Source of the DNA: Bacteroidales bacterium
GTDB lineage: Bacteria; Bacteroidota; Bacteroidia; Bacteroidales; UBA932
NCBI GenBank assembly: GCA_022647615.1
Contig: JALCKZ010000001.1
Coordinates: 110,178-174,177, forward strand
Direction of reading: 5' to 3'
DNA: 64,000 bases
Shown here: positions 7,898 to 60,928 of the stretch, piece by piece
Layout: each line of letters begins with the position of its first letter
Numbering within the stretch: the stretch's first letter is position 1
Made by a program: the position numbers and the translations under genes
The notes under the pieces: model-generated
Seen by the model: only the letters and a program-made list of their open reading frames with translations
What the model was told of the DNA's origin: nothing
Database searches by the model: none

Positions 7898-9793
7898 CTA
7901 CCAGTTCTTCTCCTTCTGCCTGGACTTTGCTGCAGCCGCACGCGCCTTCTGCACTTTCTGCTGCGTCTGATTCTCCTTATCCTGAATGGCTTGCAGCATT
8001 TGCTGAGCATTCTGCTGGCTCATCTTTGGCTGCTGGCCGCCACCCTGAGGCTGCTGCTGCGGATTCTGCTTGTTCTGATTATTCTGGTTGTTTTGATTAT
8101 TCTGATTTTGGTTCTGGTTATTCTTGTTTTGATTGTTATTGTTCTGATTTTGATTTTGGTTATTGTTTCCCTGATTATTCTTGTTCTGATTATTTTGGTT
8201 CTGATTCTGATTCTGATTTTGGTTCTGATTGTTATTATTCTTGTCTTTATTGTCCTTATTGTTCTTGTTATTATCCTTGTTCTGATTCTGCTGATTCTGA
8301 GCCATCTTCTTGGCATAAGCATAGTTTGCCTTGGCCATCATATCGGAAGGATTCCTGACAAGAGATTGCTTGAACATTTCAGCCGCCTTGTCATACTGCT
8401 TCTGAGCCATATAGTTATTGCCGGCATTAAAGAAAAACTTTGACAAGTTATTTGGCTTGCCCATGTCTTTCTTAGTGTATTTTTTCTTCACGATAGTTTT
8501 GCCGCTGCCGTTCCAATTCATTTTGAACGGAATCTTGCTCACGGTATCTGCCGTAGCCTCAAACATCTTAGTGGCGTTATCAGCATCTTTCAATCTGTAC
8601 AGGGTATTTGCAAGATTAGCACGCCCCACAACAGACATGGAATCTCTTAGCAAACCTTTGCGGTATTCAACCTCCGCCTGTTTGAATTTGCTCTTTCCAA
8701 AATATCTGTTTCCGTTGCCGACCTGTTTTTTATCTCTCTGCGCAAAACCCTGAGTGCCAATCATTAAAAATAGCACCGCAAACATAAAAATTCTCTTTCC
8801 CAACTTTCTGTTTCCTATTAAAAATTCCAGCAGCAAAAACGCAAGAGCTATTGCAAGGAAGTACATAAACTGCTCATCATACTCCTCAAATGCAAGGGCT
8901 TTGTAACTCTGCTTGCTTAACTCTCTAATTTTATCAAGTATCACATCCAGACCAAACTCGGCATCTCCCGCCTTAACATACGCTCCATCACCCGCCTTTG
9001 CAATCTCCTGCAAACCAGTCTCGTCCAGCTTTGTGACAACAATATTTCCCTGCTTGTCCTTCATAAGTCCGCCGCCGGCCATCGGAATCGGCTGACCCTG
9101 AGGTGTTCCAACACCTATGCAATAAACTCTGATTCCCGCCTCGCGAGCAGACTGTGCGGCAGCAACTGCATCATCCTCATGGTTTTCACCGTCGGTGATC
9201 ACAATAATTGCCTTATTATCTTTGCCTGCCATTCCCTCTTCTGAAAAACTCTTTGCGCAAGTCTCAATGGCATCTCCAATTGCAGTTCCCTGAATTGGGA
9301 CAGATGACGTATTTATGCTGTTCAAAAAAGCGGTTGCGGAGACATAATCTGCTGTAATTGGGAGTTGTACAAAAGATTGTCCTGCAAATACAACCAGACC
9401 TATGCGGTCATTGTGAAGCCTATTTACAAGATGGGCAATATCCATCTTTGCCCTCTCCAAACGGTTTGGAGAATAATCACGAGCAAGCATGGAATTTGAG
9501 ACATCCAGCGCTATCATAATCTCTGAACCTTTATCATCGCTCTCCTTAAGCTTTGCTCCAATCTGAGGCCTTGCAAGACCCAGCATTAAAAACAGCCACG
9601 CCAAAGAGAAGCAGGTAAGTTTAACCCACCCTATAGACTTTGACCTCTCCGGCATCAATTTGTCTACCAGCTCCGGAGTTCCGAACTTTGCAATTCTCTT
9701 GTTTCTTCCTCTTCTGTAAAGTGCATAAAATAAGTAGAATAGAGGAATAACAAATATTAAAAACAAATATAACGGTTGTGCAAAATGTAACAT
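7898..9793 (-). CDS. batB: BatB-BatC fusion: VWA-domain membrane protein joined to a TPR protein with an N/Q-rich tail
   Basis: The N-terminal half is a TM + VWA domain (MIDAS-like DVSNSM, ITDGENH). After a TM helix, an internal signal-peptide-like MFAVLFLMIGTQGFAQ (codon near 8785) is followed by TPR-like repeats and a tail of about 90 aa of N/Q/K. No stop codon separates the two halves. Confidence 0.8.
   Translation of the reverse strand: MLHFAQPLYLFLIFVIPLFYLFYALYRRGRNKRIAKFGTPELVDKLMPERSKSIGWVKLTCFSLAWLFLMLGLARPQIGAKLKESDDKGSEIMIALDVSNSMLARDYSPNRLERAKMDIAHLVNRLHNDRIGLVVFAGQSFVQLPITADYVSATAFLNSINTSSVPIQGTAIGDAIETCAKSFSEEGMAGKDNKAIIVITDGENHEDDAVAAAQSAREAGIRVYCIGVGTPQGQPIPMAGGGLMKDKQGNIVVTKLDETGLQEIAKAGDGAYVKAGDAEFGLDVILDKIRELSKQSYKALAFEEYDEQFMYFLAIALAFLLLEFLIGNRKLGKRIFMFAVLFLMIGTQGFAQRDKKQVGNGNRYFGKSKFKQAEVEYRKGLLRDSMSVVGRANLANTLYRLKDADNATKMFEATADTVSKIPFKMNWNGSGKTIVKKKYTKKDMGKPNNLSKFFFNAGNNYMAQKQYDKAAEMFKQSLVRNPSDMMAKANYAYAKKMAQNQQNQNKDNNKNNKDNKDKNNNNQNQNQNQNQNQNNQNKNNQGNNNQNQNQNNNNQNKNNQNQNQNNQNNQNNQNKQNPQQQPQGGGQQPKMSQQNAQQMLQAIQDKENQTQQKVQKARAAAAKSRQKEKNW
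8002..8300 (-). repeat. Low-complexity AAC/CAG (N/Q) codon repeat tract inside batB/C
   Basis: The protein reads NQNQNQNQNQNNQNKNNQGNNNQNQNQNNNNQNKNNQNQNQNNQNNQNNQNKQ. The nucleotide sequence shows gattctgatt/ggttctgatt type microrepeats. Confidence 0.9.
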
Positions 9794-9804: not shown

Positions 9805-10794
9805 CTAATCAGGTAAATGTTTAGTAACAAACAACCTCATAATTATCTCAAGCGCAACGGCCAGGAAAGCTATAAGCGCAAAGGCCATATAAAGCTCTCT
9901 GTATTTAGGGAATGAGTTCACGATGGTTTTGCTCTTCTCCATCTTGTTAATCTCATGATAAATTTCCATCAGCTTTGTATTGTCTGTCGCCCTGAAATAT
10001 TTTCCGCCAGTCTCCTTTGCAATACCTTGCAAAAGAGGTTCATCAATCTCAACTTTCATATCCTGAACTTGTACTCCGTAAGGAGTCATAAACGGATACG
10101 GCGCAACTCCCATTGCACCAACGCCTATAGTATAAACTCTTATGCCATAAGTTCTTGCAATTTCCGCCGCCATCTGCGGAGAAATCTCTCCGGTGTTATT
10201 CACACCATCTGTCAGCAAAATAATCACGCGGCTCTTTGCGGGAGAATCTTTCAATCTTGCAACCGCAGTTGCAAGTCCGTTTCCTATTGCCGTACCATCC
10301 TCTATCTCATCACAATTAATCTCCTTCATCAAATTAATAAGAGATGCACGGTCCGTAGTAAGAGGAGATTGAGTATAACTCTCTCCGGCAAAAACCACAA
10401 TTCCCATTCTGTCCGCAGGACGCTGAGAAATAAATTGTATCGCAATCTGCTTTGCGGCAGAAATCCTATCAGGTTTAAAATCCATCGCGAGCATACTGGT
10501 TGACACATCCATATCCAGCACAATATCAATGCCTTCCGTGCTTACCTTCTCCAGCTTTGAAGAGGAGCGCGGACGCGCAATTGCAAGGATTAAAAATGAA
10601 ATTGCAACGCACCTTAAGACAAACGGAACATGCTTTAAAATCTTCTGAAAAACTCCGGCGTTATATTTCCACGGAGTAATTGTAGGAACCAGCAAATAAG
10701 GCTCCTTCCCCTTAATCTCTCTCCAAATATACAGGAATATTACAGGGATTAAAATCAGCAGAAGCCACAATAATTTTGGATACTCAAAAAACAT
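9805..10794 (-). CDS. batA: BatA (VWA-domain membrane protein)
   Basis: 329 aa with two N-terminal TM helices, a VWA domain (LDMDVSTSM, LLTDGVNN) and a C-terminal TM. Its start overlaps the upstream stop (TAATG). Confidence 0.85.
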   Translation of the reverse strand: MFFEYPKLLWLLLILIPVIFLYIWREIKGKEPYLLVPTITPWKYNAGVFQKILKHVPFVLRCVAISFLILAIARPRSSSKLEKVSTEGIDIVLDMDVSTSMLAMDFKPDRISAAKQIAIQFISQRPADRMGIVVFAGESYTQSPLTTDRASLINLMKEINCDEIEDGTAIGNGLATAVARLKDSPAKSRVIILLTDGVNNTGEISPQMAAEIARTYGIRVYTIGVGAMGVAPYPFMTPYGVQVQDMKVEIDEPLLQGIAKETGGKYFRATDNTKLMEIYHEINKMEKSKTIVNSFPKYRELYMAFALIAFLAVALEIIMRLFVTKHLPD

Positions 10795-14075: not shown

Positions 14076-14918
14076 ATGAAATATTTTATCCGTCTTTCAT
14101 ATAACGGCGCCCCCTTCAGCGGCTGGCAAATTCAAAAAAACGCAAACAGCGTTCAGGAGGAACTTCAAAAGGCTTTCTCCACTCTCCTAAAAGAGAAGAT
14201 TGAAATTACCGGTGCGGGAAGAACAGACAGCGGAGTCAACGCCGTCAACTATATAGCCCATACGGAAATTTCATCTATTGGTAAAAACCCGGCTGAGTTT
14301 CTTTACAAAATAAATGCCATTCTGCCCAAAGAAATAGTAGTAAAGAACATTTTTAAAATGCCCGCCTCCGCTCATGCAAGATTTGATGCGGTGAGCAGGA
14401 CCTACAAATACTTCTTAACGCTTGAAAAAGAACCGTTTAACTCAGCTTTTACATACTTTTACAGACCCGGGCAGCTGGATTTTGAAGCTATGAATAAGGC
14501 GGCAAAGTACTTCCTTGGAGAGCAAGATTTTACCAGCCTGGAAAAACTGCACAGCGGAGCGCAAAATGCCATCTGCAACGTAACCGCCGCCTGCTGGGAA
14601 CGTCAAGCCGGCAGCACAGCGGCAGGAACCCGCGGCGCAGCGGCAGGAACCGGTGGCGCAGCAGCAGAAACCGGCGGCGCAGCTTTTATAATACCCTGTG
14701 CAACAGATATATATGTATTCACTGTTACATCAAACAGATTCCTGCGCAATATGGTCAGAGCAATGGTAGGTTCACTTTTGGAAGTTGGCAGCGGCAAACG
14801 CAAACCGGAGTGGATTGCAGAGATGCTTGCCCGCAAAGACAGATGCGCCGCCGGTTACTCCGTCCCCGGCAATGCCCTATTCCTTACAGAGATACGCTAT
14901 CCATATCCGATAGAATAA
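14076..14918 (+). CDS. truA: tRNA pseudouridine(38-40) synthase TruA
   Basis: From the internal Met: MKYFIRLSYNGAPFSGWQIQ...GAGRTDSGVNA (catalytic Asp)...FLRNMVR. The ORF-track start at 13758 overlaps moxR and is rejected. Confidence 0.85.
   Translation: MKYFIRLSYNGAPFSGWQIQKNANSVQEELQKAFSTLLKEKIEITGAGRTDSGVNAVNYIAHTEISSIGKNPAEFLYKINAILPKEIVVKNIFKMPASAHARFDAVSRTYKYFLTLEKEPFNSAFTYFYRPGQLDFEAMNKAAKYFLGEQDFTSLEKLHSGAQNAICNVTAACWERQAGSTAAGTRGAAAGTGGAAAETGGAAFIIPCATDIYVFTVTSNRFLRNMVRAMVGSLLEVGSGKRKPEWIAEMLARKDRCAAGYSVPGNALFLTEIRYPYPIE
14613..14683 (+). repeat. In-frame GC-rich 21-nt tandem repeat (about 3.4 units) inside truA
   Basis: Units are agcacagcggcaggaacccgc / ggcgcagcggcaggaaccggt / ggcgcagcagcagaaaccggc / ggcgcagc. 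They encode STAAGTRGAAAGTGGAAAETGGAA. Confidence 0.85.
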
Positions 14919-14946
14919 TCCTACGATTCTCAATCCCGGGTAATGA

Positions 14947-15077
14947 TAACAAGGCATAAAAAATAACGGGCTCTTTTCGCCCGTTATTTTTTTGCCCGCG
15001 CGCCACGTGGCGCGCTGCCTCCTCGTGGCGGCAGCCACGTAAACCACTAATTGCCAGCATGCTTTGTATGCTGGCAA
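14947..15077 (-). repeat. GC-rich multi-hairpin repeat, copy C (reverse orientation)
   Basis: Collinear with the reverse complement of 31841-31962. Order is terminator hairpin, gcgcgcca/tggcgcgc, cgtggc-ggca-gccacg, taaaccactaa, then ttgccagcat-GCTTTGT-atgctggcaa. Confidence 0.85.
14963..14993 (+). terminator. Rho-independent terminator of truA (part of repeat copy C)
   Basis: Stem ataacgggc/gcccgttat with a 7-nt loop, followed by a T7 run. Confidence 0.7.
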
Positions 15078-15120
15078 CTCGCAGACTGCACAGCAGGCTG
15101 CGTGAAGATGCTACCGCTTA

Positions 15121-15253
15121 AGAACGCACAGAAAGGCAAAAAGTTAATCTATTGATAATGTGTTAATTGCAAGGTCTACGATTTTTGAGGGGATAAAAAC
15201 GCCGTAACTTACTGATAGTCAGATAGGGTAATTTTTGCCTTTTTGTGCGTTCT
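15121..15253. repeat. 22-bp inverted repeat pair (21/22 match) flanking an 89-nt spacer
   Basis: agaacgcacagaaaggcaaaaa (15121-15142) versus tttttgcctttttgtgcgttct (15232-15253). The second arm runs into TTCTGGAGGGGGTGGC. Confidence 0.8.
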
Positions 15254-15358
15254 GGAGGGGGTGGCAAAGTGCTTCTCCACGCATCCTATAGAGGTGGTAT
15301 GCACAGTACATTTCTACGCGTCCAGGTGTGAAACGAAAAACCGCTTCGCAGAGCTTAT

Positions 15359-15476
15359 ATTTGGGTTTTTATTAAAATACAGATATACAACAAGATACAT
15401 GGATTGAAAAAATCAAAACCTGATTTTCACAAACGTGCAATGCGCTTATTATCTGCAACTTGGTAAAAACCCAAAT
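15359..15476. repeat. 13-bp perfect inverted repeat pair flanking a 92-nt spacer
   Basis: atttgggttttta (15359-15371) versus taaaaacccaaat (15464-15476). TTCTGGAGGGGGGGGGGTGGC follows 8 nt later, paralleling the module at 15121-15268. Confidence 0.8.
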
Positions 15477-15491
15477 CCACGTACTTCTGGA

Positions 15492-15501
15492 GGGGGGGGG
15501 G
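15492..15501 (+). repeat. Homopolymeric G10 tract
   Basis: Ten consecutive G in a low-GC intergenic context. The paralogous motif at 15257-15261 has G5. Confidence 0.9.
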
Positions 15502-15546
15502 TGGCGGGAATGAAACAGCAGCTCGGAAAAAAGGAATTGTGTTAAG

Positions 15547-15672
15547 CACGCTCCGCATGCAGTTACCAGCGCACAAAGCGCGCTGGTAATGTGTGGTTTA
15601 CGCGGCTCCCGCCGCGAGGAGGCACGCGCTCCGCGCGGGCAAAAATCTGCTGAGCAGAAAATTTTGCCTTGC
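15547..15672 (+). repeat. GC-rich multi-hairpin repeat, copy B (forward orientation)
   Basis: cacgctccgcatgcag, ttaccagcgc-ACAAAGC-gcgctggtaa, tgtgtggttta, cgcggc-tccc-gccgcg, aggaggca, cgcgc-tcc-gcgcg, ggcaaaaa, tctgc-tga-gcaga, aaattttgccttg. Confidence 0.85.
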
Positions 15673-15790
15673 GGAATTTTTCCCATTGAAAAAAGCCATG
15701 GGAAATTTTTGCGTTGAGGATTTTCAATTGAAAGAAAAGCCGTGGGAAATTTTTGCCTTGTGAATTTTCCATTGTGAATTTGTACCTTTG
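15659..15790 (+). repeat. Imperfect tandem repeat of about 44 nt (about 3 units) upstream of exbB
   Basis: Units start at 15659, 15703 and 15747, each beginning (g)aaattttt-gc(c/g)ttg. This is the tail motif of the multi-hairpin repeat, triplicated. Confidence 0.75.
15783..15790 (+). promoter_or_regulatory. Candidate -7 box (TAccTTTG) for exbB
   Basis: Exact TAnnTTTG, 67 nt upstream of the exbB ATG. Confidence 0.35.
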
Positions 15791-19367: not shown

Positions 19368-20960
19368 TTACTTGTAAGAGCCCATCTTGAGCATCCCTAT
19401 CTCCTGCTGAGTAAGGAATCTCCACTGTCCGCGTCTTAGTCCCTTCTTTGTAAGTCCCGCAAAATAAACACGGTCCAGCTTCTTAACTTTATATCCAAGA
19501 CTCTCAAAAATTCTCCTGACAATTCTGTTTCTGCCGGTATGGATTTCTATTCCAAGCTGGCTCTCATCTTCATCTATATATGAAAGCGCATCAGCATTAA
19601 TAGGTCCGTCTTCCAGTTCAATACCGTTTACAATCTTCTCAAAATCATCCTTTTTCAGATTCTTATCCAAAAAGACCTGATAGATTTTTTTCTTCTCATA
19701 AGAAGGATGTGTCAGCTGTTCTGTGAGTTCTCCGTCATTTGTCAGCAGCAGCACGCCCGTTGTCTCTCTATCTAGTCTCCCGACAGGATATACTCTCTCA
19801 GCACATTTGCCCTCCACCAAATCCATTACGGTCTTTTCCGCATGAGGGTCAGAAGTTGTTGTAACATAATCTTTTGGCTTATTCATTAAGATGTAAACTT
19901 TCTGTTCGCCCTTAATAACCTCACCATTGAACTTAACAACATCATTCTGAAAAACTTTTGTTCCAAGCTCAGTAATTACCTGATCATTAATAGAAACCAC
20001 TCCGGCTGTGATAAAATCATCAGCCTCTCTTCTGGAACAAATTCCTGAATTTGCAATAAACTTATTTAAACGAGTTCCCTCTTCTCCAGCAGCCTTTGGC
20101 TGTCTTGGTTTAGGGGTATATTCCTGAACGTAAGAGCGCTGCTTATCCAAAGTCTCATCCCCGTTCTCTTGGAATCTGTCTATTCTGCTCTCATTCATCT
20201 CCTCCCTGCGGGCAGCTCTCTCTGCATCAAAATCCCTGCGCGGCTTCCTGTCTCTATCTCCAAAACTTCTTCTTGGTCTGTCGCCTCCGTCTCGTGAACC
20301 GCCAAAGCTTCTGCGAGGTCTGTCGCCTCCATCACGTGAACCGCCAAAGCTTCTTCTTGGACGGTCTCCAAATGTTCTTGGTTTATCTCCGTAACTCCTT
20401 CTCTCTCTGTGCTCTCCTCCCTCCTTGTCATCATCAAATTTTCTTCTGAAAGGTCTGTCTCCAAAACTCCTCGGCTTATCCCCAAAACTTCTTCTTGGAC
20501 GGTCGCCTCCATCACGTGAGCCGCCAAAACTTCTTCTTGGACGGTCGCCAAATGTTCTTGGTTTATCTCCGTAACTCTTTCTTTCTCTGTGCTCTCCCCC
20601 CTCCTTGTCATCATCAAATTTCCTTCTGAAAGGTCTGTCTCCAAAACTCCTCGGCTTATCTCCAAAGCTCCTTCTTGGTCTATCTCCTCCGTCACGTGAA
20701 CTCCCGTAACTCCTTCTTGGTCTGTCACCTCCGTCACGCGAACCGCCAAAACTTCTTCTTGGACGGTCACCTCCATCGCGCGTTCCTCTGAAACTTCTGC
20801 GCGGTTTCTCATCTGAGCCTTCACCTTTATCATCTCTGTCGTGATGAAAACTCCTTCTCTGCGGACGTCCTGAGCCTTCCCCGGCTGAGAACTTTCTGTG
20901 TCCGTAGCTGCGTCCTGTACTCTTTGAGTCAGAGCGCCTTGGTCTAAATTCCTTTTCCAT
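19368..20960 (-). CDS. rluB: RluB/RsuA-family pseudouridine synthase with a long RG/RD-rich repetitive N-terminal extension
   Basis: The C-terminal 270 aa hold an S4 domain (RLNKFIANSGICSRREAD) and a catalytic PVGRLD motif. The N-terminal 255 aa or so are repeats of GGSRDGGDRPRRSFG. Confidence 0.85.
   Translation of the reverse strand: MEKEFRPRRSDSKSTGRSYGHRKFSAGEGSGRPQRRSFHHDRDDKGEGSDEKPRRSFRGTRDGGDRPRRSFGGSRDGGDRPRRSYGSSRDGGDRPRRSFGDKPRSFGDRPFRRKFDDDKEGGEHRERKSYGDKPRTFGDRPRRSFGGSRDGGDRPRRSFGDKPRSFGDRPFRRKFDDDKEGGEHRERRSYGDKPRTFGDRPRRSFGGSRDGGDRPRRSFGGSRDGGDRPRRSFGDRDRKPRRDFDAERAARREEMNESRIDRFQENGDETLDKQRSYVQEYTPKPRQPKAAGEEGTRLNKFIANSGICSRREADDFITAGVVSINDQVITELGTKVFQNDVVKFNGEVIKGEQKVYILMNKPKDYVTTTSDPHAEKTVMDLVEGKCAERVYPVGRLDRETTGVLLLTNDGELTEQLTHPSYEKKKIYQVFLDKNLKKDDFEKIVNGIELEDGPINADALSYIDEDESQLGIEIHTGRNRIVRRIFESLGYKVKKLDRVYFAGLTKKGLRRGQWRFLTQQEIGMLKMGSYK
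20320..20690 (-). repeat. Near-identical 180-nt tandem duplication inside the rluB N-terminal region
   Basis: Lines 20341-20460 and 20521-20640 are almost identical at a 180-nt offset. Each unit encodes about 60 aa (FGDKPRSFGDRPFRRKFDDDKEGGEHRER.SYGDKPRTFGDRPRRSFGGSRDGGDRPRRS). Confidence 0.9.
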
Positions 20961-26489: not shown

Positions 26490-27017
26490 ATGATACTTTC
26501 TTTATGCGGTTTTATGTCATGCGGCAAAAGCGGCATGGGGCGTTACCTAGCCAATGAGTTAAAAACGCAAGTCATTGACTTGGACAGTTATATAGAGACG
26601 CAGGAAGGATGTACCGTTTCTGAATATTTTGCAAAAAATGGAGAAGAAAAATTCCGGGCAACGGAATTAAATGCGCTAAAAAAGATTATCGCAGATTACC
26701 GGGATAAAAATCTAATTCTATCTCTCGGCGGCGGAACGCCAATGAATCCTGAGTGCAAAAAGCTCATCAAAGAGAAAACTTTTTGCATCTATCTCACCTG
26801 TACAATTAAAGAGCTGGCTTTCAGATTAAAAGACACGGCAAGTCAGCGCCCCGTCTTTGCCGCCAAAGGAGAAGCAGATACAGAATCGTGGGTAAAAACC
26901 ATGCTTGCCAAAAGAGAACCATCTTATCTACAATGCTCTAAACTCCAGGTAGATACCACCATCTGGGATAAAAAATCCATAGCAGAAGAAATCCTAAAAA
27001 GATTACCTAACAGGTAA
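26490..27017 (+). CDS. aroK: Shikimate kinase
   Basis: 175 aa with P-loop GFMSCGKS, D.D...IE, and FR..E...L and LGGG motifs. Confidence 0.8.
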   Translation: MILSLCGFMSCGKSGMGRYLANELKTQVIDLDSYIETQEGCTVSEYFAKNGEEKFRATELNALKKIIADYRDKNLILSLGGGTPMNPECKKLIKEKTFCIYLTCTIKELAFRLKDTASQRPVFAAKGEADTESWVKTMLAKREPSYLQCSKLQVDTTIWDKKSIAEEILKRLPNR

Positions 27018-27039: not shown

Positions 27040-27206
27040 GGCAAAGTCGCGAACGCCGCGCCAAAGGCGCGTGCCTCCTTCACCGCGGCAGCGGTGTTAA
27101 CCACAAGGCAATGCGCTGCTTTGTAGCGCATTGCTGCAGCCCGCGCAGCGGGCTGTACTTGCTGCTTTGTAGCGCATTGCTTCAGCAACCTGTAAAACAG
27201 GTTGCA
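27040..27206 (-). repeat. GC-rich multi-hairpin repeat, copy D (reverse orientation, diverged and partly duplicated)
   Basis: cgcgcc-aaa-ggcgcg, tgcctcc, caccgc-ggca-gcggtg, ttaaccacaa, gcaatgcgct-GCTTTGT-agcgcattgc. It then has cagcccgc-gca-gcgggctg, a second GCTTTGT-agcgcattgc half, and gcaacctg-taaaa-caggttgc. Confidence 0.8.
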
Positions 27207-30554: not shown

Positions 30555-31829
30555 ATGAGAACAACTAAGGTCATTCATGAACATGATTGTTTTCCAGATA
30601 AAGTATCATATCTTAAATATGATTCGAGGCTAGGGAATGGTTTTCCCCTATTTCCTCCTGGTACCTCGGATTTCAATCAGCGTTATTTTATTCAATGGGA
30701 AGGGCTTGATAATAAGCCCGGTTATAGAGCATCTTATATGATAGGTGCTCAGTGGATAAATACTGAGCATGATCAAATTCCCGTAGCAGTTGTACCAAAA
30801 ATTGAACACATAGATTTTTTAAAAATGTTTATGTCCTGTTTCTACAGTAATTTAGCTGAAGACTCATTTTCTAAGATTTACCATATTGATACCTCAAAGA
30901 AGGAAATTGAATGTCAAGAACTTGACAGTATTTTAAGCCCTTTAATTGTCCTTCATTTTCTTGCCGTAACTAAATCTCTTATAGCAAAAGGCTTAAAAAA
31001 AGATTATGTGAATAGGGATGGGAACATGCATAAAGTTAAAGGCAGGCTGGATATTCGTAAGAACGAAAAAACTAATGTGTTGACAAGAAGACTTGACCGA
31101 TTTTACTGTAATTATCAAGAATATTCAGAGGATATCCCGGAAAATAGAATCATTAAAAAAGCTCTTATAATATCGCAAGTGATTCTACAAAAAATACAAC
31201 CACAACAATCAGAAGGGGCTATCAATATCTTGCGCAAATGCCTAGCTGTAATGAGTGGAGTTGGTAACACGATAGAGCAACATGAGGTCTCAATGATTAA
31301 ACATCATAAACTTTTCAAAGAGTATGAAGAGAGTATAAAGTTGGCAAAACTCATTTTAAAAAGATATGATTTCAGCATTACCAAAGAAGGTAAAAACCAT
31401 GATTTTGTGCCAGTATTTTGGATTGATATGCCATTGCTATATGAGCACTATGTTTATGGATTATTGTCTGCATCGTATCCTGACGATATAATCTATCAAG
31501 CTGAAGGACAGACCGGATATCCTGATTTCTTGTGTAAGTCACATAAGTTGATTTTGGATACCAAGTACATTCCTGATAGTGATATACATTTGGATACTTA
31601 TGTAATTCGGCAGTTGTCAGGATATGCTCGCGACAATGCAATACTCAATCAACTAAACGCAGACTATAAAGAAGTGGTGCCATGCGTTATCATATATCCC
31701 AAGGAGTCAGTTGATAATGAGGTAGTAAATGATTTTAACAAACCGTTAAATAAATTATGGACACAATACGAAGGTTTAGTGGAGTTTTACACAATTTGTG
31801 TTAATCTGCCTAATATAGTAAAAAGATAG
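30555..31829 (+). CDS. mcrC: McrC-like nuclease subunit
   Basis: 424 aa starting 4 nt after the mcrB stop. C-terminal PD-(D/E)xK-like GYPDFLC...LILDTKY, with size and order typical of McrC. Confidence 0.8.
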   Translation: MRTTKVIHEHDCFPDKVSYLKYDSRLGNGFPLFPPGTSDFNQRYFIQWEGLDNKPGYRASYMIGAQWINTEHDQIPVAVVPKIEHIDFLKMFMSCFYSNLAEDSFSKIYHIDTSKKEIECQELDSILSPLIVLHFLAVTKSLIAKGLKKDYVNRDGNMHKVKGRLDIRKNEKTNVLTRRLDRFYCNYQEYSEDIPENRIIKKALIISQVILQKIQPQQSEGAINILRKCLAVMSGVGNTIEQHEVSMIKHHKLFKEYEESIKLAKLILKRYDFSITKEGKNHDFVPVFWIDMPLLYEHYVYGLLSASYPDDIIYQAEGQTGYPDFLCKSHKLILDTKYIPDSDIHLDTYVIRQLSGYARDNAILNQLNADYKEVVPCVIIYPKESVDNEVVNDFNKPLNKLWTQYEGLVEFYTICVNLPNIVKR

Positions 31830-31840
31830 TACTATACGAG

Positions 31841-31962
31841 TTGCCAGCGCACAAAGCGCACTGGCAATTAGTGGTTTACGCGGCTCCGCCGCGAAGCTGC
31901 ACGCGCTCCGCGCGGGCAAAAAAAAACAGGCAAAAATGCCTGTTATTTTTTATGCCTTGTTA
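31841..31962 (+). repeat. GC-rich multi-hairpin repeat, copy A (forward orientation, most compact copy)
   Basis: ttgccagcgc-ACAAAGC-gcactggcaa, ttagtggttta, cgcggc-tcc-gccgcg, aagctgca, cgcgc-tcc-gcgcg, ggcaaaaaaaaa, caggc-aaaaat-gcctg, ttattttttatgccttgtta. Confidence 0.9.
31925..31951. terminator. Bidirectional rho-independent terminator between mcrC and recJ (part of repeat copy A)
   Basis: Stem aacaggc/gcctgtt, preceded by A9 and followed by aTTTTTT. The flanking genes are convergent. Confidence 0.7.
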
Positions 31963-35419: not shown

Positions 35420-36274
35420 ATGACCCCGGATGCCGATAGGAATCTTATCACTTCTTTAAAGAATCCAAAAATTAAAGAGGCGCTTGAGCTTTATGAGAAA
35501 TCTAAAGAGCGCAGGGCCAGGCATTTATTTGTTGTGGAGGGAGTTAGAGAAGTCCTGGATTGCATTAATGCCGGATACGAACTGCGCACTGTTTTTTATT
35601 GTCCAAAAATAATTTCAGAGAAAAATTTTAATGAGATAAAAAAGCACGCAATAGATGAAATCTGTTTTGAAGTAACAGAAGATGTCTATGGCAAGCTTGC
35701 CTATCGCGCAGGAACAGAGGGTATTGTAGCAGTTGTTAAAGAGAAGAAAAAAAAGCTGGAGGATATAAACCTCAAAGTAAAGTGTGATGAGAAAGGTAAC
35801 TATCAGCCTCTTATTCTAGTAGTTGAGAGTGTGGAGAAACCCGGCAATCTTGGAGCTTTGCTAAGAACGGCAGATGCCTGCGGAGCGGATGCTGTTCTGA
35901 TTTGCGATGAGCTTACAGACCTGTACAATCCAAATTTAATCCGCGCAAGTCTTGGAGGAATCTTTACGCAAAACGTTGTCTGCTGCACAAATGAAGAGGC
36001 CTATAAATGGCTAAAAGACAATAATATAACAATATACACAGCACAGCTGCAAGATTCAAAACTGTACTATAAAACAGACATGAAGAGAGGCTGCGCAATT
36101 GTAATGGGAAGCGAGGCAAACGGGCTTACTGAGTTTTGGAGAAAAGCGGCCAGCGAGAAAATAATGATTCCGATGATGGGGAAACTGGATTCTCTAAACG
36201 TCTCTGTATCAGCAGCTATTTTATGTTATGAGGCGCTTAGACAGAGGTCGTCAAGCATAAACGAGAATAAATGA
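35420..36274 (+). CDS. SpoU/TrmH-family RNA 2'-O-methyltransferase
   Basis: 284 aa with an L30e-like substrate-binding N-domain and SpoU motifs (KPGNLGALLRTADACG, GSEANGL, IPMMGKLDSLNVSVSA). Confidence 0.8.
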   Translation: MTPDADRNLITSLKNPKIKEALELYEKSKERRARHLFVVEGVREVLDCINAGYELRTVFYCPKIISEKNFNEIKKHAIDEICFEVTEDVYGKLAYRAGTEGIVAVVKEKKKKLEDINLKVKCDEKGNYQPLILVVESVEKPGNLGALLRTADACGADAVLICDELTDLYNPNLIRASLGGIFTQNVVCCTNEEAYKWLKDNNITIYTAQLQDSKLYYKTDMKRGCAIVMGSEANGLTEFWRKAASEKIMIPMMGKLDSLNVSVSAAILCYEALRQRSSSINENK

Positions 36275-36897
36275 AAACAAAGGTTAATATTCAAAACTGG
36301 GAACGCAAAGAAGTATACGAGTACTTCTCAAAATTTAAATATCCTATGGGGGGACTGCTTGCAGACGTAGATGTTACCCAGGTGTACGATTATGCACAAA
36401 GCACGGGACGTTCCTTATACATGACAACATTGTACAACACGTTAAAGATTGCTGACAGCATAGAAAATTTCAGATACAGAATAGAAAACGGGGAAGTTTA
36501 TCTATATGACAATGCAAGTATAGGTTCAACGTATCTTAGAAAAAGAAACAATACACTGGCTTTTACCTGGTTTAACAACTACAGCGATATAGACTCTTTT
36601 ATTAAGGAGGCTAGAAAAGCTGAAAATCAGGCTGAAATGGCTGACGGTCTAGACCTCAAGGCGGATACTATGCATGGGAATTTAATCTGCTTTTCCTGTG
36701 TCCCATGGGTAAATTTTACGGCGATTGCAGAGCCTTTTTCACCTTTTGACTCCTCATTCCCACACGTGGTCACAGGAAGGTTTTATAAAAAGGGCAAAAA
36801 AATCCTAATGCCGGTCTCTGTAAAAATCCACCATGGATTAGGGGACGGCTATCATCTGTCGCTGTTTCTACAAAAATTTTCTAATATCAATTGGTAA
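36271..36897 (+). CDS. cat: Chloramphenicol-acetyltransferase-family (type A CAT-like) protein
   Basis: 208 aa with WERKEVYEYF, FSCVPWVNFT and the catalytic-His region KIHHGLGDGYH (compare HHAVCDGFH). ATGA overlap with the preceding gene. Confidence 0.75.
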   Translation: MKTKVNIQNWERKEVYEYFSKFKYPMGGLLADVDVTQVYDYAQSTGRSLYMTTLYNTLKIADSIENFRYRIENGEVYLYDNASIGSTYLRKRNNTLAFTWFNNYSDIDSFIKEARKAENQAEMADGLDLKADTMHGNLICFSCVPWVNFTAIAEPFSPFDSSFPHVVTGRFYKKGKKILMPVSVKIHHGLGDGYHLSLFLQKFSNINW

Positions 36898-36928
36898 CCA
36901 ATATATTATAAAATTTCCCAAATAAAAT

Positions 36929-37786
36929 ATGTCAAAGTTCGCCCTAATAGGAAATCCAATAAAACACTCTCTAAGCCCAGCCCTATTCAAAATAGCCTAC
37001 AGCGGAAATACAGATGAATATGAACTAATTGAATCCCAGAGTGTTGAGGAGGCAATGCAAAAAGTTCACGATGGCGAATACAGTGGCATCAATGTCACTG
37101 CTCCTTTCAAAGAATCCGTAATGCAGTATGTCACCCGTCCGGACTCCGTCACCACTCGCCTGCACGCCGCCAATACCCTGCTATTCAAGGGGGCAGAAGT
37201 TTTTTCCTACAATACCGATTATTTGGCCGTGAGGGAAATCTTGAGCATACGCTGCGCGCAGAGCAGTGCGGCACAAAGCGCCGCACTGCCAAGTGATTTA
37301 CGCGGCTTCCGCCGCGAGGATGCACGCGTGCTCCGCACGCGGCCTTTGGCAAATAGATTATATCCCTCTGCTGAAAGAAAAGCAATGGTAATTGGCGTAG
37401 GCGGTGCTGGGAAAGCAGCCGCACTGGCACTAAAAGACGCTGGCTACAAAACCATTATAGCAAACAGAACCATAGATAAAGCAAAAGAATTTGCTGCAGA
37501 AATAGGAGCAGAATCCGCCGGATTAAACGAGGTGGCAGATATTGTTAAACGCGTTGCAGTTATAGTATATGCGCTGCCGCTGAAAATAGAAGAGTTAAAA
37601 GAGAGTGACCTGTCGGGAGTACTATTGATTGAAGCAAATTATAAAAACCCCTCTTTCTCCGCAGCCCCAAACTACGTGGGCGGATTGGAATGGCTGGTGA
37701 ACCAGGCAATCCCGGGATTCAAGCTTTTTACAGGCCGGGAACCGTCAGCAGAGAGGATGAGGCTTTTTGCAGAATCAATAATTTAA
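36929..37786 (+). CDS. aroE: Shikimate dehydrogenase carrying an in-frame repeat-derived insertion of about 30 aa
   Basis: GNPIKHSLSP, NVT.PFK, NTDY and GVGGAGKAAA motifs. The NTDY-to-GxGG spacer is 54 aa, versus about 20-25 aa expected for the family. Confidence 0.8.
   Translation: MSKFALIGNPIKHSLSPALFKIAYSGNTDEYELIESQSVEEAMQKVHDGEYSGINVTAPFKESVMQYVTRPDSVTTRLHAANTLLFKGAEVFSYNTDYLAVREILSIRCAQSSAAQSAALPSDLRGFRREDARVLRTRPLANRLYPSAERKAMVIGVGGAGKAAALALKDAGYKTIIANRTIDKAKEFAAEIGAESAGLNEVADIVKRVAVIVYALPLKIEELKESDLSGVLLIEANYKNPSFSAAPNYVGGLEWLVNQAIPGFKLFTGREPSAERMRLFAESII
37248..37343 (+). repeat. GC-rich multi-hairpin repeat, copy E, inside the aroE ORF (in frame)
   Basis: tacgctgcgcgcagag, cagtgcggc-ACAAAGC-gccgcactg, ccaagtgattta, cgcggc-ttcc-gccgcg, aggatgca, cgcgtgc-tcc-gcacgcg, gcctttggcaaa. 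It lacks the terminator module. Confidence 0.85.
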
Positions 37787-39708: not shown

Positions 39709-41148
39709 ATGGATACTATAAAAAAGACTTTAAGAGACTCAGCTGCAGCAAGGTGGATAGCTTTGCTCATAATCTCGCTGGTGATGTTTGCAGCATACGT
39801 CACCTCGGACATCTTTGCTCCTCTGCAAACAATGCTGGAGGAAAACAACCTTTGGAACAGCGTTGAATTTGGCTGGTTTGCAGGTTCGTACTCAATCTTC
39901 AACGTATTCCTTGGAATGCTAATTTTTGGAGGTTTTATCCTGGATAAAAAAGGGATAAGATTTACCGGAATGTTATCATGCATTCTAATGGTAATAGGTA
40001 TTGCAATCAAGTACTACGCAGTAGCTTACATACCTGTAATTGACCCTGCTACAGGCGCTCAGAACCTTGGTTATTTTGTAGGAGCCCACATGAAAAAACA
40101 GGTGATATGGGTTGTAGTTGGATTTGGAATTTTTGGAGTTGGTTCTGAGGTTGCGGGAATTACTGTAAGCAAAATTATTGTCAAGTGGTTCAAAGGGAAA
40201 GAGCTGGCTATGGCAATGGGGCTTCAGCTTGCGCTTGCAAGACTTGGCTCAGCCTTGGCACTTGTAGTATCTCCGTTGATTGCAGCACATTACGGCAGCG
40301 TGAGCTCATCAGTTATGTTTGCTCTAATCTTGCTGGGCATAGCTTTGGTTTGCTTCTTCTTCTACTGCATCCAAGACAAGCGATTAGATAAACAACTCGC
40401 AGAAAATAAATTGGCAGAGGGTAAAAAGGAAGATGAAGCCTTCTCTCTTAAGGATGTCAAAGCAATTATTACTAATCCCGGTTTTTGGCTGATTGCATTT
40501 TTGTGCCTGATTTTTTATGCGGCAGTTTTACCTTTCTACCAGTTTGCATCCTCACTTATGGTCAACAAATTTGGAGTGGCAGAGAAATGGGCCGGTACAA
40601 TTCCGGCAATTTTGCCGTTTGGATGCCTTATTCTAACTCCTTTATTTGGAAGGATTTATGACAAATACGGACATGGCGCGGACTTGATGATTTTTGGTGC
40701 CGTGCTCATAACTGGCGTGCATTTATTCTTTGCGCTTCCGTTCACTCATGCAGCATGGTTTGCCATAATTTTGATGATTCTTTTGGGAATTGGTTTTGCA
40801 ATGCTTCCATCCGCAATGTGGCCATCCTTGGCTAAAATTATTCCGGAGAAACAATTCGGAACTGCAATGGCGCTAACCTATTATATTCAGAATATAGGAC
40901 TTTGGGGAGTTCCTATGTTAATAGGCTGGATATTAAATAAATACTGCATCTTATCAACATATAATGCGGCATTGCCTATGAGATATCCGGATAATCCAAA
41001 ATATAATTACGTACTGCCGATGCTGGTCTTTGCAATTACATGTTCAGTCGCAATTATTTTGGCTTTCTGCTTAAAGTCTTTGAACAAGAGAAAGCATTAT
41101 GGTTTGCAAGATCCTAATATTAAAGCGGAAGCAGATAAAGCAAAATAA
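39709..41148 (+). CDS. MFS transporter (paralogue 1 of 3)
   Basis: 479 aa, about 12 TM helices, shared motif ITVSKIIVKWFKGKELAMAMGLQLALARLG. Confidence 0.8.
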   Translation: MDTIKKTLRDSAAARWIALLIISLVMFAAYVTSDIFAPLQTMLEENNLWNSVEFGWFAGSYSIFNVFLGMLIFGGFILDKKGIRFTGMLSCILMVIGIAIKYYAVAYIPVIDPATGAQNLGYFVGAHMKKQVIWVVVGFGIFGVGSEVAGITVSKIIVKWFKGKELAMAMGLQLALARLGSALALVVSPLIAAHYGSVSSSVMFALILLGIALVCFFFYCIQDKRLDKQLAENKLAEGKKEDEAFSLKDVKAIITNPGFWLIAFLCLIFYAAVLPFYQFASSLMVNKFGVAEKWAGTIPAILPFGCLILTPLFGRIYDKYGHGADLMIFGAVLITGVHLFFALPFTHAAWFAIILMILLGIGFAMLPSAMWPSLAKIIPEKQFGTAMALTYYIQNIGLWGVPMLIGWILNKYCILSTYNAALPMRYPDNPKYNYVLPMLVFAITCSVAIILAFCLKSLNKRKHYGLQDPNIKAEADKAK

Positions 41149-41205
41149 ACGGTCAGATGTAGTATAAATAATACAAATTCCTTATACATAAGATTTTAGC
41201 AAAAT

Positions 41206-46362: not shown

Positions 46363-46436
46363 GCCGATGTAGCTCAGTTGGCCAGAGCAGCTGATTTGTA
46401 ATCAGCTGGTCGGGGGTTCGAATCCCTCCATCGGCT
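46363..46436 (+). tRNA. tRNA-Thr (anticodon TGT)
   Basis: Cloverleaf folded by hand. Acceptor GCCGATG/CATCGGC, anticodon stem GCTGA/TCAGC with loop TTTGTAA, T-loop TTCGAAT. No encoded CCA. Confidence 0.9.
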
Positions 46437-46454
46437 CTAATTTTTTGTGTTAAC

Positions 46455-46537
46455 GGAGAGGTACCAAAGTGGCCAACTGGGGCAGACTGTAAATCTGCTG
46501 GCTTATGCCTTCGGAGGTCCGAATCCTTCCCTCTCCA
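46455..46537 (+). tRNA. tRNA-Tyr (anticodon GTA), long variable arm
   Basis: Acceptor GGAGAGG/CCTCTCC, anticodon loop CTGTAAA, long variable arm, T-loop TCCGAAT region. Confidence 0.9.
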
Positions 46538-46547
46538 CTTTTTTACC

Positions 46548-46620
46548 GCGGAAGTAGCTCAGTTGGTAGAGCATCAGCCTTCCAAGCTGAGGGTCGCGAG
46601 TTCGAACCCCGTCTTCCGCT
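46548..46620 (+). tRNA. tRNA-Gly (anticodon TCC)
   Basis: Acceptor GCGGAAG/CTTCCGC, anticodon loop CTTCCAA, T-loop TTCGAAC. Confidence 0.9.
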
Positions 46621-46628
46621 CTAAGAAG

Positions 46629-46700
<72 letters not shown>

Positions 46701-48082: not shown

Positions 48083-48153
48083 AGGGACATAGTTCAAGGG
48101 TAGAATCGCGGTCTCCAAAACCGCTGATGGGCGTTCGAATCGCTCTGTCCCTG
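48083..48153 (+). tRNA. tRNA-Trp (anticodon CCA)
   Basis: Acceptor AGGGACA/TGTCCCT, anticodon stem GCGGT/ACCGC with loop CTCCAAA, T-loop TTCGAAT. In the typical position before secE. Confidence 0.9.
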
Positions 48154-59626: not shown

Positions 59627-60769
59627 ATGAAAAAATTTTTATTGATTCTGGCGGCGGTAATCATGGTTGCTGCATGCGGGAAAAAAGAAGAGGCAGGCTA
59701 CAAAGTCACCGTAAAATTTGAAGGTGATGTACCTGATTTGAAGACAGATGCAAGAATAATCATGACCAATATGGATACTTCCGAGTATGCCATAAATGAT
59801 ACTGCAACGGTAGTGAACGGACAGGCAATGTTCACCGGTTCTGTCAAATCTCCTGACCTTGTGGTAATCAGATTTCTTGGCGTTGACCAAAGCGGCTCAT
59901 CCAGAAATATTTGCACGCTCTTTTTGGAAAACGACACATACACTATCTCAGTTCCGGCGGACACAAATGAGGAACCTGTAATAACGGGAGGCAGAACACA
60001 ACATGTTGTAGACTCGTTAAACACTGTGGCAAAGAGCATTATAAAGGCGGCGAAATTAGACACGCTGCAATCAATGTTTGAAACCGCAACAGATGTTATG
60101 AAAGATTCCATCACAACTGTTAGGAAAAAAGTTTATGAAGACATTAACAACGTTTTTACAAACTACATTAACAAACACCCCCACTCTATGTTTGCGCTTT
60201 ACCAAGACGCAATGCAAATAGAATATATGCCTGCAGACTCTGCAATGAAATTGGAAAAAGAATTTGCATCAATTCCAGAATATGCTAACAATAAATACTT
60301 TAAGAAGATTCAAAAATATGTTTCGGGAGAGAGCAACTTTGCGGTTGGAAAGCAGGCGCCTGATTTTACAGAGAATGACCCGGCAGGAAACCCTATTAAA
60401 TTTTCAGATATATATAAACAGAATAAAATCACGATGGTTGATTTTTGGGCCTCCTGGTGCAGCCCGTGCCGCCAGTTCAATCCAATACTTAGAAGACTGT
60501 ACTACAAATACAAAAACAAAGGATTTGGAATACTGGGCGTATCACTTGATAAAGAGCAAGATGCGTGGCTGGATGCAATTGCAAAAGACCGTCTTTCATG
60601 GCCGCAGGTATCTGACTTAAAGGGATGGGACAACGCCGTTTCAAAAGCATACCTCGTAACATCAATACCGCAAAATATTTTTGTAGACAGCACCGGCAGA
60701 ATTGTTTTAAGCAGAGCGGAAGAGGATGAGATTGACAGTTTCCTTAATGATAATTTGAATCAGCAATAA
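59627..60769 (+). CDS. TlpA-like thiol:disulfide oxidoreductase lipoprotein (thioredoxin fold with an N-terminal DUF4369-like domain)
   Basis: Lipobox VAACG and a thioredoxin motif FWASWCSPC in the C-terminal domain. Confidence 0.8.
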   Translation: MKKFLLILAAVIMVAACGKKEEAGYKVTVKFEGDVPDLKTDARIIMTNMDTSEYAINDTATVVNGQAMFTGSVKSPDLVVIRFLGVDQSGSSRNICTLFLENDTYTISVPADTNEEPVITGGRTQHVVDSLNTVAKSIIKAAKLDTLQSMFETATDVMKDSITTVRKKVYEDINNVFTNYINKHPHSMFALYQDAMQIEYMPADSAMKLEKEFASIPEYANNKYFKKIQKYVSGESNFAVGKQAPDFTENDPAGNPIKFSDIYKQNKITMVDFWASWCSPCRQFNPILRRLYYKYKNKGFGILGVSLDKEQDAWLDAIAKDRLSWPQVSDLKGWDNAVSKAYLVTSIPQNIFVDSTGRIVLSRAEEDEIDSFLNDNLNQQ

Positions 60770-60890
60770 GCAGCAAGTCACAGCAATAGGCAAATTGCAG
60801 CAATAAGCAAGTCACAGCAATAAGCAAATTGCAGCAATAAGCAAATCACAGCAATAAGCAAATCACTGCACACAGCAATAGGCAAATCAT
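60761..60890 (+). repeat. 17-nt tandem repeat (about 7 units, CAGCAATAAGCAAATYR)
   Basis: Units begin at 60761, 60781, 60798, 60815, 60832, 60849 and 60873. The first unit contains the last two codons and the TAA stop of the preceding gene. Confidence 0.9.
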
Positions 60891-60895
60891 AAAAA

Positions 60896-60928
60896 TAAAA
60901 AAGGCGGCACATAAGTGTCGCCTTTTTT
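60896..60928. terminator. Bidirectional rho-independent terminator
   Basis: Stem ggcggcac/gtgtcgcc with loop ataa, A-run before and T6 after. It lies between convergent genes. Confidence 0.7.

Follow-up and report, generated by a model that had tools for sequence, protein, structure and literature searches.

The first question raised by this locus is whether a GC-rich segment inside a shikimate dehydrogenase gene is a copy of a dispersed repeat. The second is whether the gene that carries it still encodes a working enzyme. The window, meaning the whole 64,000 nucleotide (nt) stretch that was analysed, comes from a Bacteroidales bacterium (GenBank assembly GCA_022647615.1, contig JALCKZ010000001.1, positions 110,178 to 174,177 of the forward strand), and coordinates given without a locus name refer to it. 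The gene, aroE, lies at 36929-37786 on the + strand and contains a repeat-derived insert, here called type 1, at 37245-37343 on the same strand. Judging from sequence comparisons and a structural model, the insert is likely a tolerated in-frame copy of a three-hairpin repeat in the AroE linker, and the gene is likely functional.

The host gene was recognized from the open reading frame (ORF) list, Pfam and matches to AroE structures in the PDB. Its insert-bearing product of 285 aa contains the Pfam domains Shikimate_dh_N (6-84), Shikimate_DH (143-215) and SDH_C (252-278), and it has every feature by which AroE was defined here, namely the domains, the Lys/Asp pair, the GxGGxGK loop and the two-domain fold. 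Residue conservation was examined in alignments of 15 and 119 AroE homologues. Lys61 of the PFK motif (codon 37109-37111, +), which we take to be the catalytic lysine, is invariant across the 119 homologues. Asp97 of the NTDY motif (codon 37217-37219, +), presumably the catalytic aspartate, is conserved. The NADP-binding glycine loop GVGGAGK, G156-K162, is intact (37394-37414, +); G159, A160 and G161 are invariant in both alignments, and K162 is invariant in alignment A2 and nearly so in A4. Overall K61, N82, D97, the G159-A160-G161-K162 loop, N179-R180 and Q259 are invariant or nearly invariant. The gene order SpoU-(CAT)-aroE-ssb-purA is kept in all related loci. Another step of the shikimate pathway is represented in the window by an intact shikimate kinase gene, aroK (26490-27017, +; Pfam SKI, E = 4e-38). 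The window protein, P0001, is named shikimate dehydrogenase at JGI and only 'NAD(P)-binding domain-containing protein' at NCBI. The insert probably lowers the family-model score of P0001, which would account for the weak NCBI name.

The insert is 99 nt long, equivalent to 33 codons (about residues 106-139), and lies in frame between the NTDY motif and the GVGGAGK loop. Its GC content is 68.7%, compared with 45% for the rest of aroE and 41.5% for the window. The segment begins with a GC-rich lead, GCATACGCTGCGCGCAGA (37245-37262, +), that resembles hairpin 3, although its covariance match to that hairpin is weak (5.6 bits). Hairpin 1 follows at 37263-37289 (+), with arms GCAGTGCGGC and GCCGCACTGC forming a perfect 10-bp stem around the loop ACAAAGC. 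A conserved single-stranded linker, CAAGTGATTTA (37290-37300, +; family consensus tAGTGGTTTAC), separates it from hairpin 2, CGCGGC-TTCC-GCCGCG (37301-37316, +), which has 6 pairs, 3 of them covarying. Hairpin 3, CGCGTGC-TCC-GCACGCG (37325-37341, +), completes the copy, which ends ...CGCACGCGGCC and gives way to coding sequence. The 3' module found elsewhere, consisting of GGGCAAAA, a terminator hairpin and a T-run, is absent. Folding predicted three independent hairpins, with the 5' and 3' ends of the insert unpaired with each other.

These results agree closely with the initial annotation, which had placed the copy at 37248-37343, within 3 nt of the limits found here, and had described it as hairpins 1-3 with the terminator module missing; sequence, fold and family alignment all bear out that description. 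The peptide it had translated (...SIRCAQSSAAQSAALPSDLRGFRREDARVLRTRPLAN...) occurs exactly in the aroE ORF translation. The spacer between the NTDY motif and GVGGAGK is 57 residues rather than the 54 given there.

Membership in a repeat family was assessed with a covariance model, R1, built from 13 distinct copies, some of them in the window and others in related genomes and at three loci in metagenomes. These three loci (L130-L132) were all that a strict pattern search returned, and they served as extra family copies. R1 matched the aroE copy at 37242-37350 with 102 bits (E about 1e-24), a full-length match covering model positions 1-112. A sequence-only profile searched with nhmmer matched 37245-37347 (E = 4.5e-23). 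On these two scores, the membership of the aroE copy in the family is far beyond chance. The copy also follows the family order with matching spacing, that is hairpin 1, (A)GTG(G/A)TTTAC, hairpin 2, GAGGAnGCA and hairpin 3.

The family is a structured repeat. The loop ACAAAGC, the linker (A)GTGGTTTAC and GAGGAnGCA are conserved, and the stems vary with full compensation. All 10 pairs of hairpin 1 covary across the 13 copies, with two to four pair types each. Paired cells make up 97.7% of the stem positions compared with 73% in shuffles, and the covariation score of 0.73 was reached by 0/500 shuffles (0.27 in shuffles; slid controls <= 0.10). G-U and A-C cells are balanced (7 vs 5), a ratio that does not discriminate between constraint on an RNA strand and constraint on DNA.

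An exhaustive R1 search of the window found exactly five copies, among which the aroE copy has the second-best score and is the sole intragenic one. The four others are intergenic. Copy A (14984-15103, -) is downstream of a pseudouridine synthase gene and has its terminator module at 14950-14995. Copy B (15543-15650, +) lies upstream of a MotA/ExbB-family gene and has the hairpin TCTGCTGAGCAGA and a T-run after it. Copy C (31817-31927, +) lies directly after the mcrC stop codon between convergent genes, and its terminator hairpin extends to about 31950. Copy E (27046-27158, -) belongs to a divergent subfamily and lies between aroK and an AAA_14 gene, antisense to both. Family copies are generally found between or directly downstream of genes, can face either way with respect to the genes beside them, and often adjoin bidirectional terminator-like hairpins. 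In the close subfamily the intergenic copies carry GGGCAAAA, a terminator-like hairpin and a T-run after hairpin 3. This module is absent or different in the divergent subfamily and is thus not needed for membership. The segment 37344-37390 was considered as a decayed terminator module on account of a TCTGCTGA match to copy B. It was rejected, as its translation, ...RKAMVIG, is the native outgroup consensus KA[IVM]VIG.

An extra partial hairpin 1 unit adjoins copy E at 27115-27186, where GCTGCTTTGTAGCGCATTGC is present twice, 46 nt apart; the family thus forms local partial tandem arrays. Between the inverted copies A and B there are about 440 nt of non-coding sequence (15104-15542). This stretch, to which Rfam gave no match, has two inverted-repeat pairs, 15114-15142/15232-15260 and 15359-15385/15450-15476, and TTCTGGAGGGGG..GGTGGC occurs in it twice together with G-runs, at about 15249 and 15486.

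The family was not found described in the literature searched. At the Rfam gathering threshold only tRNAs were matched in the window, and in E-value mode 14900-15720 and 37200-37400 gave chance-level matches only. R1 did not find the family in 40 kb from two other Bacteroidales genera. A pattern scan of genome contigs with ACAAAGCN{11,15}GTGRTTTACG, which was too loose, returned single chance matches in unrelated phyla only. Searches with the insert peptide, by word index and by exhaustive phmmer against 1.84 billion representatives, found nothing; they missed AroE itself as well, which makes this result weak evidence. Across the window and about 200 kb of related loci searched with R1, aroE is the sole gene with an in-frame copy.

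One family copy outside aroE also varies in presence. This copy, downstream of an MFS transporter gene, is present in the related loci L007 (14201-14313), L002 (14228-14340) and L004 (14103-14214). At the same site the window (41125-41200) and L009 have an unrelated AT-rich segment of about 75 nt instead. The C-terminus of the MFS protein differs where the copy is absent, and the flanks are otherwise near-identical. This polymorphic locus is a case of sequence replacement, to judge from the alignments, with no clean empty site.

Is the aroE segment an insertion, or merely a long native linker? Compared with the structure of Aquifex AroE (2hk7), residues 103-143 have only 5 chain residues opposite them. 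Among the closest homologues, all of them in SpoU-(CAT)-aroE-ssb-purA synteny, four kinds of allele were counted. The empty allele, P0006 in locus L001, encodes 252 aa and has a short linker (...AVKEILRTARSGSCNIIKNGLVIGVGGAGK); its gene is 99 nt or 33 residues shorter than that of the window (759 vs 858 nt), and its linker is about equal in length to those of the outgroup orthologues nearest in sequence. Type 1 is present in three alleles, those of the window (P0001), L007 (P0002) and L008 (P0003). Type 2 has the same start point, is 132 nt long and is present in two alleles, P0004 of L002-L003 and P0008 of L009. Type 3 is 75 nt long and is found in the Candidatus Egerieousia alleles P0005, P0007 and P0009 (L004-L006 and L136).

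One alternative is that the segment is no insertion at all: the linker could be specific to the lineage and look like the repeat by coincidence, or the contig could be chimeric. Linker length is indeed variable across Bacteroidales, assemblies of mixed-strain metagenomes can be chimeric, and the aroE junction in L009 is suspicious. Chance resemblance would have to produce a match of 102 bits, three hairpins and both conserved linkers, in a gene for which L001 is insert-free and the nearest outgroup linkers are short. As for chimerism, the same sequence occurs in many independent assemblies. The exact P0001 protein was found on 15 contigs from several samples (the places shown were in JGI and Logan), five collection blocks with P0001 include contigs longer than 1 Mb, and all three of the places that were fetched proved 100% identical to the window. 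The type 1 insert is also present on two diverged backbones, L007 and L008. With an identical protein on 15 contigs from several samples an assembly chimera is not tenable, and we regard the alternative as a whole as extremely improbable. The initial proposal of an insertion derived from an intergenic repeat is therefore upheld by the short linkers of syntenic L001 and the nearest outgroup orthologues; no segment of the same length was seen in these repeat-free relatives, and the assembly error that it had allowed for is unlikely. Orthologue alignment, which it had recommended, set the boundaries of the insert, with the 5' edge fixed to about 15 nt, and revealed no target-site duplication.

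The remaining doubt about the 5' edge comes from the type 2 allele. The first 18 nt of types 1 and 2 are common to both (GCATGCGCTGCGCGCAGA, resembling hairpin 3), and the type 2 alleles of L002 and L009 align to 37262 and 37264, respectively. Since 37245-37262 is also present in the type 2 insert, the edge is uncertain by about 15 nt, and the lead may be an older layer or a common 5' junction. The rest of the type 2 insert (L002 10317-10468 and L009 10191-10342, orthologous to window 37245-37387) had no significant R1 or nhmmer match, only weak pieces resembling hairpin 3. It contains a 46-nt direct repeat, 88 nt apart, that is translated in two frames. A 17-nt arm, GATGATGTTGCAGAACC, repeats in inverted form the native codons that lie downstream, GGTTCCTGCAACATCAT (GSCNII), and the two form a long hairpin. 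This arrangement suggests that type 2 arose by a template-switch or quasi-palindrome rearrangement.

The type 3 insert was matched by R1 on the minus strand, at 10332-10440 (-) in L004-L006 with 25.4 bits (E = 9e-5 in a 180-kb search) and at 400-508 (-) in the independent allele of L136 with 28.6 bits (E = 6.5e-6). Its reverse complement presents the family order, with a perfect 10-bp hairpin 1, the linker TTTGTGGTTTAAC, a short hairpin 2 and a hairpin like hairpin 3. The sequence-only profile misses this match, so that the assignment rests on structure and the linker motif. Type 3 is very probably a degenerate, older copy of the R1 family in reverse orientation. Alleles L004 and L136, which are 89% identical, differ by 8 substitutions in about 110 nt of insert; 6/8 are non-synonymous and one breaks a hairpin 1 pair. 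The type 3 insert thus evolves as a relaxed loop in a constrained gene. On these alignments, an element-derived segment at the AroE linker appears to have been tolerated for a long time, and the family appears to have inserted on two or more occasions, and in both orientations, within one stretch of roughly 10 codons.

The second question, whether the type 1 gene works, was approached through substitution rates and a structural model. The ratio of non-synonymous to synonymous substitution (dN/dS) in the aroE flanks is 0.07-0.29 in all comparisons, and it is 0.09 at a dS of about 1.0 between the window and L008, both of which bear the insert. No stops or frameshifts are present in the three type 1 alleles, the L002/L003 type 2 allele or the three type 3 alleles. 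The protein was modelled with AlphaFold2 using the 119-sequence alignment. Mean predicted local distance difference test (pLDDT) was 90 and the predicted template modelling (TM) score 0.86, with both domains above 90. Residues of about 111-150 scored 46-69; the linker helix continues as far as residue 118, and low-confidence, disordered coil occupies positions 123-147. Foldseek gave the model a TM score of 0.82, normalised to Thermus thermophilus AroE. The insert is therefore predicted to be a largely disordered, Arg-rich surface loop at the domain boundary, in line with the surface loop that had been proposed for modelling. With its two catalytic domains intact in sequence and model, the enzyme very probably still works.

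It might be argued that the insert inactivated aroE, leaving either a young pseudogene or a gene made dispensable by a paralogue or by uptake of aromatic amino acids. The insert is positioned at the domain hinge, 17 residues ahead of the NADP-binding glycine loop, the gut habitat may supply aromatic amino acids, the NCBI name is only that of an NAD(P)-binding domain protein, and the gene of the related contig L009 is frameshifted at codon 16. On the other side, the type 1, L002/L003 type 2 and type 3 alleles are free of stops and frameshifts, flank dN/dS stays at about 0.1 across dS up to 1, and genes with the type 3 insert have stayed intact while diverging by 11% in nucleotide sequence. Catalytic residues are conserved, the two-domain model is confident and aroK is intact. 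Inactivation is accordingly judged very unlikely, and of the two outcomes originally offered, a tolerated insertion or an inactivated copy, purifying selection, conserved residues and a confident fold favour the tolerated insertion.

How unusual is an insert at this position? Linker length, measured from Y98 to G159, varies between 20 and 83 residues across the 119 AroE homologues from Bacteroidales. In two other genera, in which aroE-ssb-purA synteny is kept, it is lengthened by unrelated in-frame tandem repeats (L137 9711-9884 and L138 10289-10490; proteins P0022-P0044, P0094-P0109, P0039 and P0063). One is a 51-nt unit, NTGAQFCAPE..HPHLR, present 1-4 times with a small hairpin. The second repeat duplicates the Gly-loop codons in tandem, 39 nt at a time, with about four AGGAGKAAALVVG copies at most. 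By these comparisons the AroE linker is a generally permissive, indel-prone site in Bacteroidales, so tolerance of the window insert is unsurprising. In-frame insertions of this kind had been called rare. At this linker in-frame changes are not rare within the order, with two other insert types in the closest relatives and tandem expansions elsewhere. The window insert occupies the same permissive site as this tandem-repeat and indel variation, and it differs in being a copy of a dispersed repeat, not a local duplication. An open frame through it needs no special explanation either, given its length of 99 nt and that about half of all six frames across family copies are stop-free.

The surroundings of the insert are a recombination mosaic. 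Over about 10 kb to either side, loci L009 and L007 match the window at 99.97-100% identity, and they differ precisely around aroE. The CAT segment at 36235-36919, with a CAT-family acetyltransferase ORF at 36271-36897, is in the window and the Egerieousia loci, not in L007 or L009. The 5' part of aroE in L007 and L009 is only 90-93% identical to that of the window, and L009 has type 2, not type 1. Since L009 is near-identical to the window outside the aroE region, types 1 and 2 are alleles of a single species. Over roughly its first 100 nt the window aroE resembles the Egerieousia allele, and together with the presence and absence of CAT this marks the region as a local mosaic. The aroE start of L009 (9855-9920) is frameshifted at codon 16 by 20 extra nt (AGAAATCCAATAAAACACTCT) that match the window-type allele exactly. 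This could be a real recombination scar, making the gene a pseudogene, or else a chimera that arose when a mixture of strains was assembled.

A low-divergence cassette was identified within this mosaic. It comprises the insert core and the native downstream linker (37266-37395, +) and differs from L008 at 1/130 nt, although the gene flanks differ by about 19% and the locus is 83% identical overall (binomial P = 1e-11). The type 2 cassette is likewise common to L009 and to L002, which is 87% identical. The simplest reading of this sharing would be homologous exchange between lineages.

The same cassettes could be taken to mean that the insert was kept as useful and spread by positive selection, the mRNA hairpins slowing ribosomes at the domain boundary or altering decay of the aroE-ssb-purA message, or the basic loop modifying the activity or interactions of AroE. 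This would fit the single difference in 130 nt between backbones about 19% divergent and loci 83% identical, the sharing of the type 2 cassette by a strain >99.9% identical outside CAT/aroE and a locus 87% identical, the intact type 1 hairpins that rank second of five in the window, and the location of the insert right at the domain boundary. The same pattern would, however, follow from a neutral segment that recombined recently, and the whole CAT/aroE region is mosaic. In the older type 3 copy neither structure nor peptide shows constraint, other alleles and genera have unrelated sequences in this linker, and one allele is insert-free. Compared with dinucleotide shuffles, the insert folds with a z-score of only -1.9. 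We felt that a useful insert was quite unlikely.

Somewhat broader is the idea that the linker is an actively targeted or selected landing site, either because a hairpin-recognising mobilisation system homes to the GC-rich, self-complementary DNA around the Gly-loop codons or because the cassette is advantageous. Targeting would explain the two or more independent entries of the family in opposite orientations and the other rearrangements at the site. An advantage, such as a translational pause between the domains or altered AroE regulation, would explain a near-invariant cassette across lineages that are about 83% identical. This idea is speculative and we consider it unlikely.

The tolerated in-frame copy thus remains the preferred account, and its steps can be outlined as follows. 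A 99-nt repeat copy would have entered the linker codons of aroE between the substrate-binding and Rossmann domains. It would have arrived by a DNA-level process, which may have been transposition in trans or an exchange with another copy by recombination. As the length of the insert is divisible by three, 2/3 forward frames are stop-free and the terminator module is lacking, transcription and frame would continue. The 33 residues would be translated as an Arg-rich, largely disordered surface loop that extends the linker helix. Type 1 would then be one of several alleles at a permissive, recombination-prone spot, and it would be selectively neutral.

Several points weigh against this account. 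Neither a terminal inverted repeat (TIR) nor a target-site duplication was found at the aroE junctions, and no mobilising transposase was found among those window ORFs that were scanned. An empty allele that matches type 1 exactly was not found, as the downstream linker of L001 differs. Near-invariance of the cassette between species could mean selection and not neutral hitch-hiking. AlphaFold cannot show that kinetics are unchanged with a 33-residue loop at the domain hinge, and a second aroE or ydiB paralogue, should the 2.2-Mb genome have one, may relax the need for this copy. The case for an active AroE is built from sequence comparison and a predicted structure.

The insert was compared with known mobile repeats. 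Rickettsia palindromic elements (RPE) were reportedly described in frame in protein-coding genes by Ogata et al. in 2000. They are the closest precedent, and the present case resembles them in that a hairpin-forming repeat, short at about 100-150 bp in either system, is found both between genes and in frame inside a conserved housekeeping gene, at what is here a predicted fold-compatible surface or loop position, in a host enzyme that is expected to be active. RPE measure about 105-150 bp and occur as in-frame fusions within conserved genes, at places that the protein fold can accommodate, and an RPE-bearing guanylate kinase keeps its activity (PMC2229807, PMC10969869). Differences are also apparent. 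An RPE is one long TIR stem-loop, whereas an R1 repeat consists of three distinct hairpins whose stems covary and whose loops and linkers are conserved. RPE occur in many genes; here one host gene was seen, entered at least twice. The host is a free-living gut member of the Bacteroidota, and no sequence relationship was seen, the comparison consisting of an Rfam search without a match.

Repetitive extragenic palindromes (REP) and their composites, BIME, were also compared. The R1 copies are GC-rich hairpins that lie mostly downstream of ORFs, between convergent or co-directional ORFs and near terminators; their subfamilies differ by complementary stem changes and intragenic copies are occasional. 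REP palindromes are GTAG- and CGTC-tagged, one REP family has a GTGG variant of GTAG (PMC3733652), and intragenic REP, ERIC and Correia copies are documented (PMC3733652, PMC2229807). GTGG or GTGA occurs 3 nt after hairpin 1 of the family copies, a near-likeness. Unlike REP, which is a single palindrome of 20-40 bp, the R1 repeat is a composite of three hairpins and about 100 nt with ACAAAGC and GTGGTTTAC and no clear GTAG or CGTC tag. No gene for a RAYT, the IS200/IS605-type Y1 transposase associated with REP, was seen, though no search aimed at one was made. The R1 repeat is best described as a REP-like composite hairpin repeat.

Intragenic fusions of miniature inverted-repeat transposable elements (MITE) are known for ERIC, the 107-bp form of Correia and YPAL (Delihas 2007, PMC2229807). 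Like these, the aroE insert is a non-autonomous repeat with an open frame, fused in frame into a conserved gene; unlike a MITE, it has no TIR, TA ends or target-site duplication that could be detected. The window case works like RPE, REP, ERIC and Correia insertions but belongs to none of them.

If read in this way, the locus extends selfish DNA inside protein-coding genes, classically a Rickettsia phenomenon, to abundant gut Bacteroidales. For a core biosynthetic-pathway enzyme it also offers a series of natural alleles at a single codon-level site, one empty and the others with a forward copy, a reverse copy or an unrelated insert, and such a series informs linker tolerance, repeat movement and the spread of insert alleles between strains and species. 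In-frame inserts lower profile scores and cause mis-annotation. With its strongly covarying stems and conserved loops, the repeat family merits a description of its own.

Other repeats were noted in the window. A tandem array of 17-nt units resembling AGCAATAAGCAAATCAC occupies 60755-60914 in about 7 copies. A 12/15-nt periodic repeat with 10 overlapping copies lies at 8047-8304, and units of 180 nt, 92% identical and with 42-nt offsets, lie at 20255-20813; both are presumed to be repetitive coding sequence. Four tRNA genes are located at 46363-46700 and one more at 48083-48153, upstream of the EF-Tu region, and these are the sole Rfam gathering-level matches.

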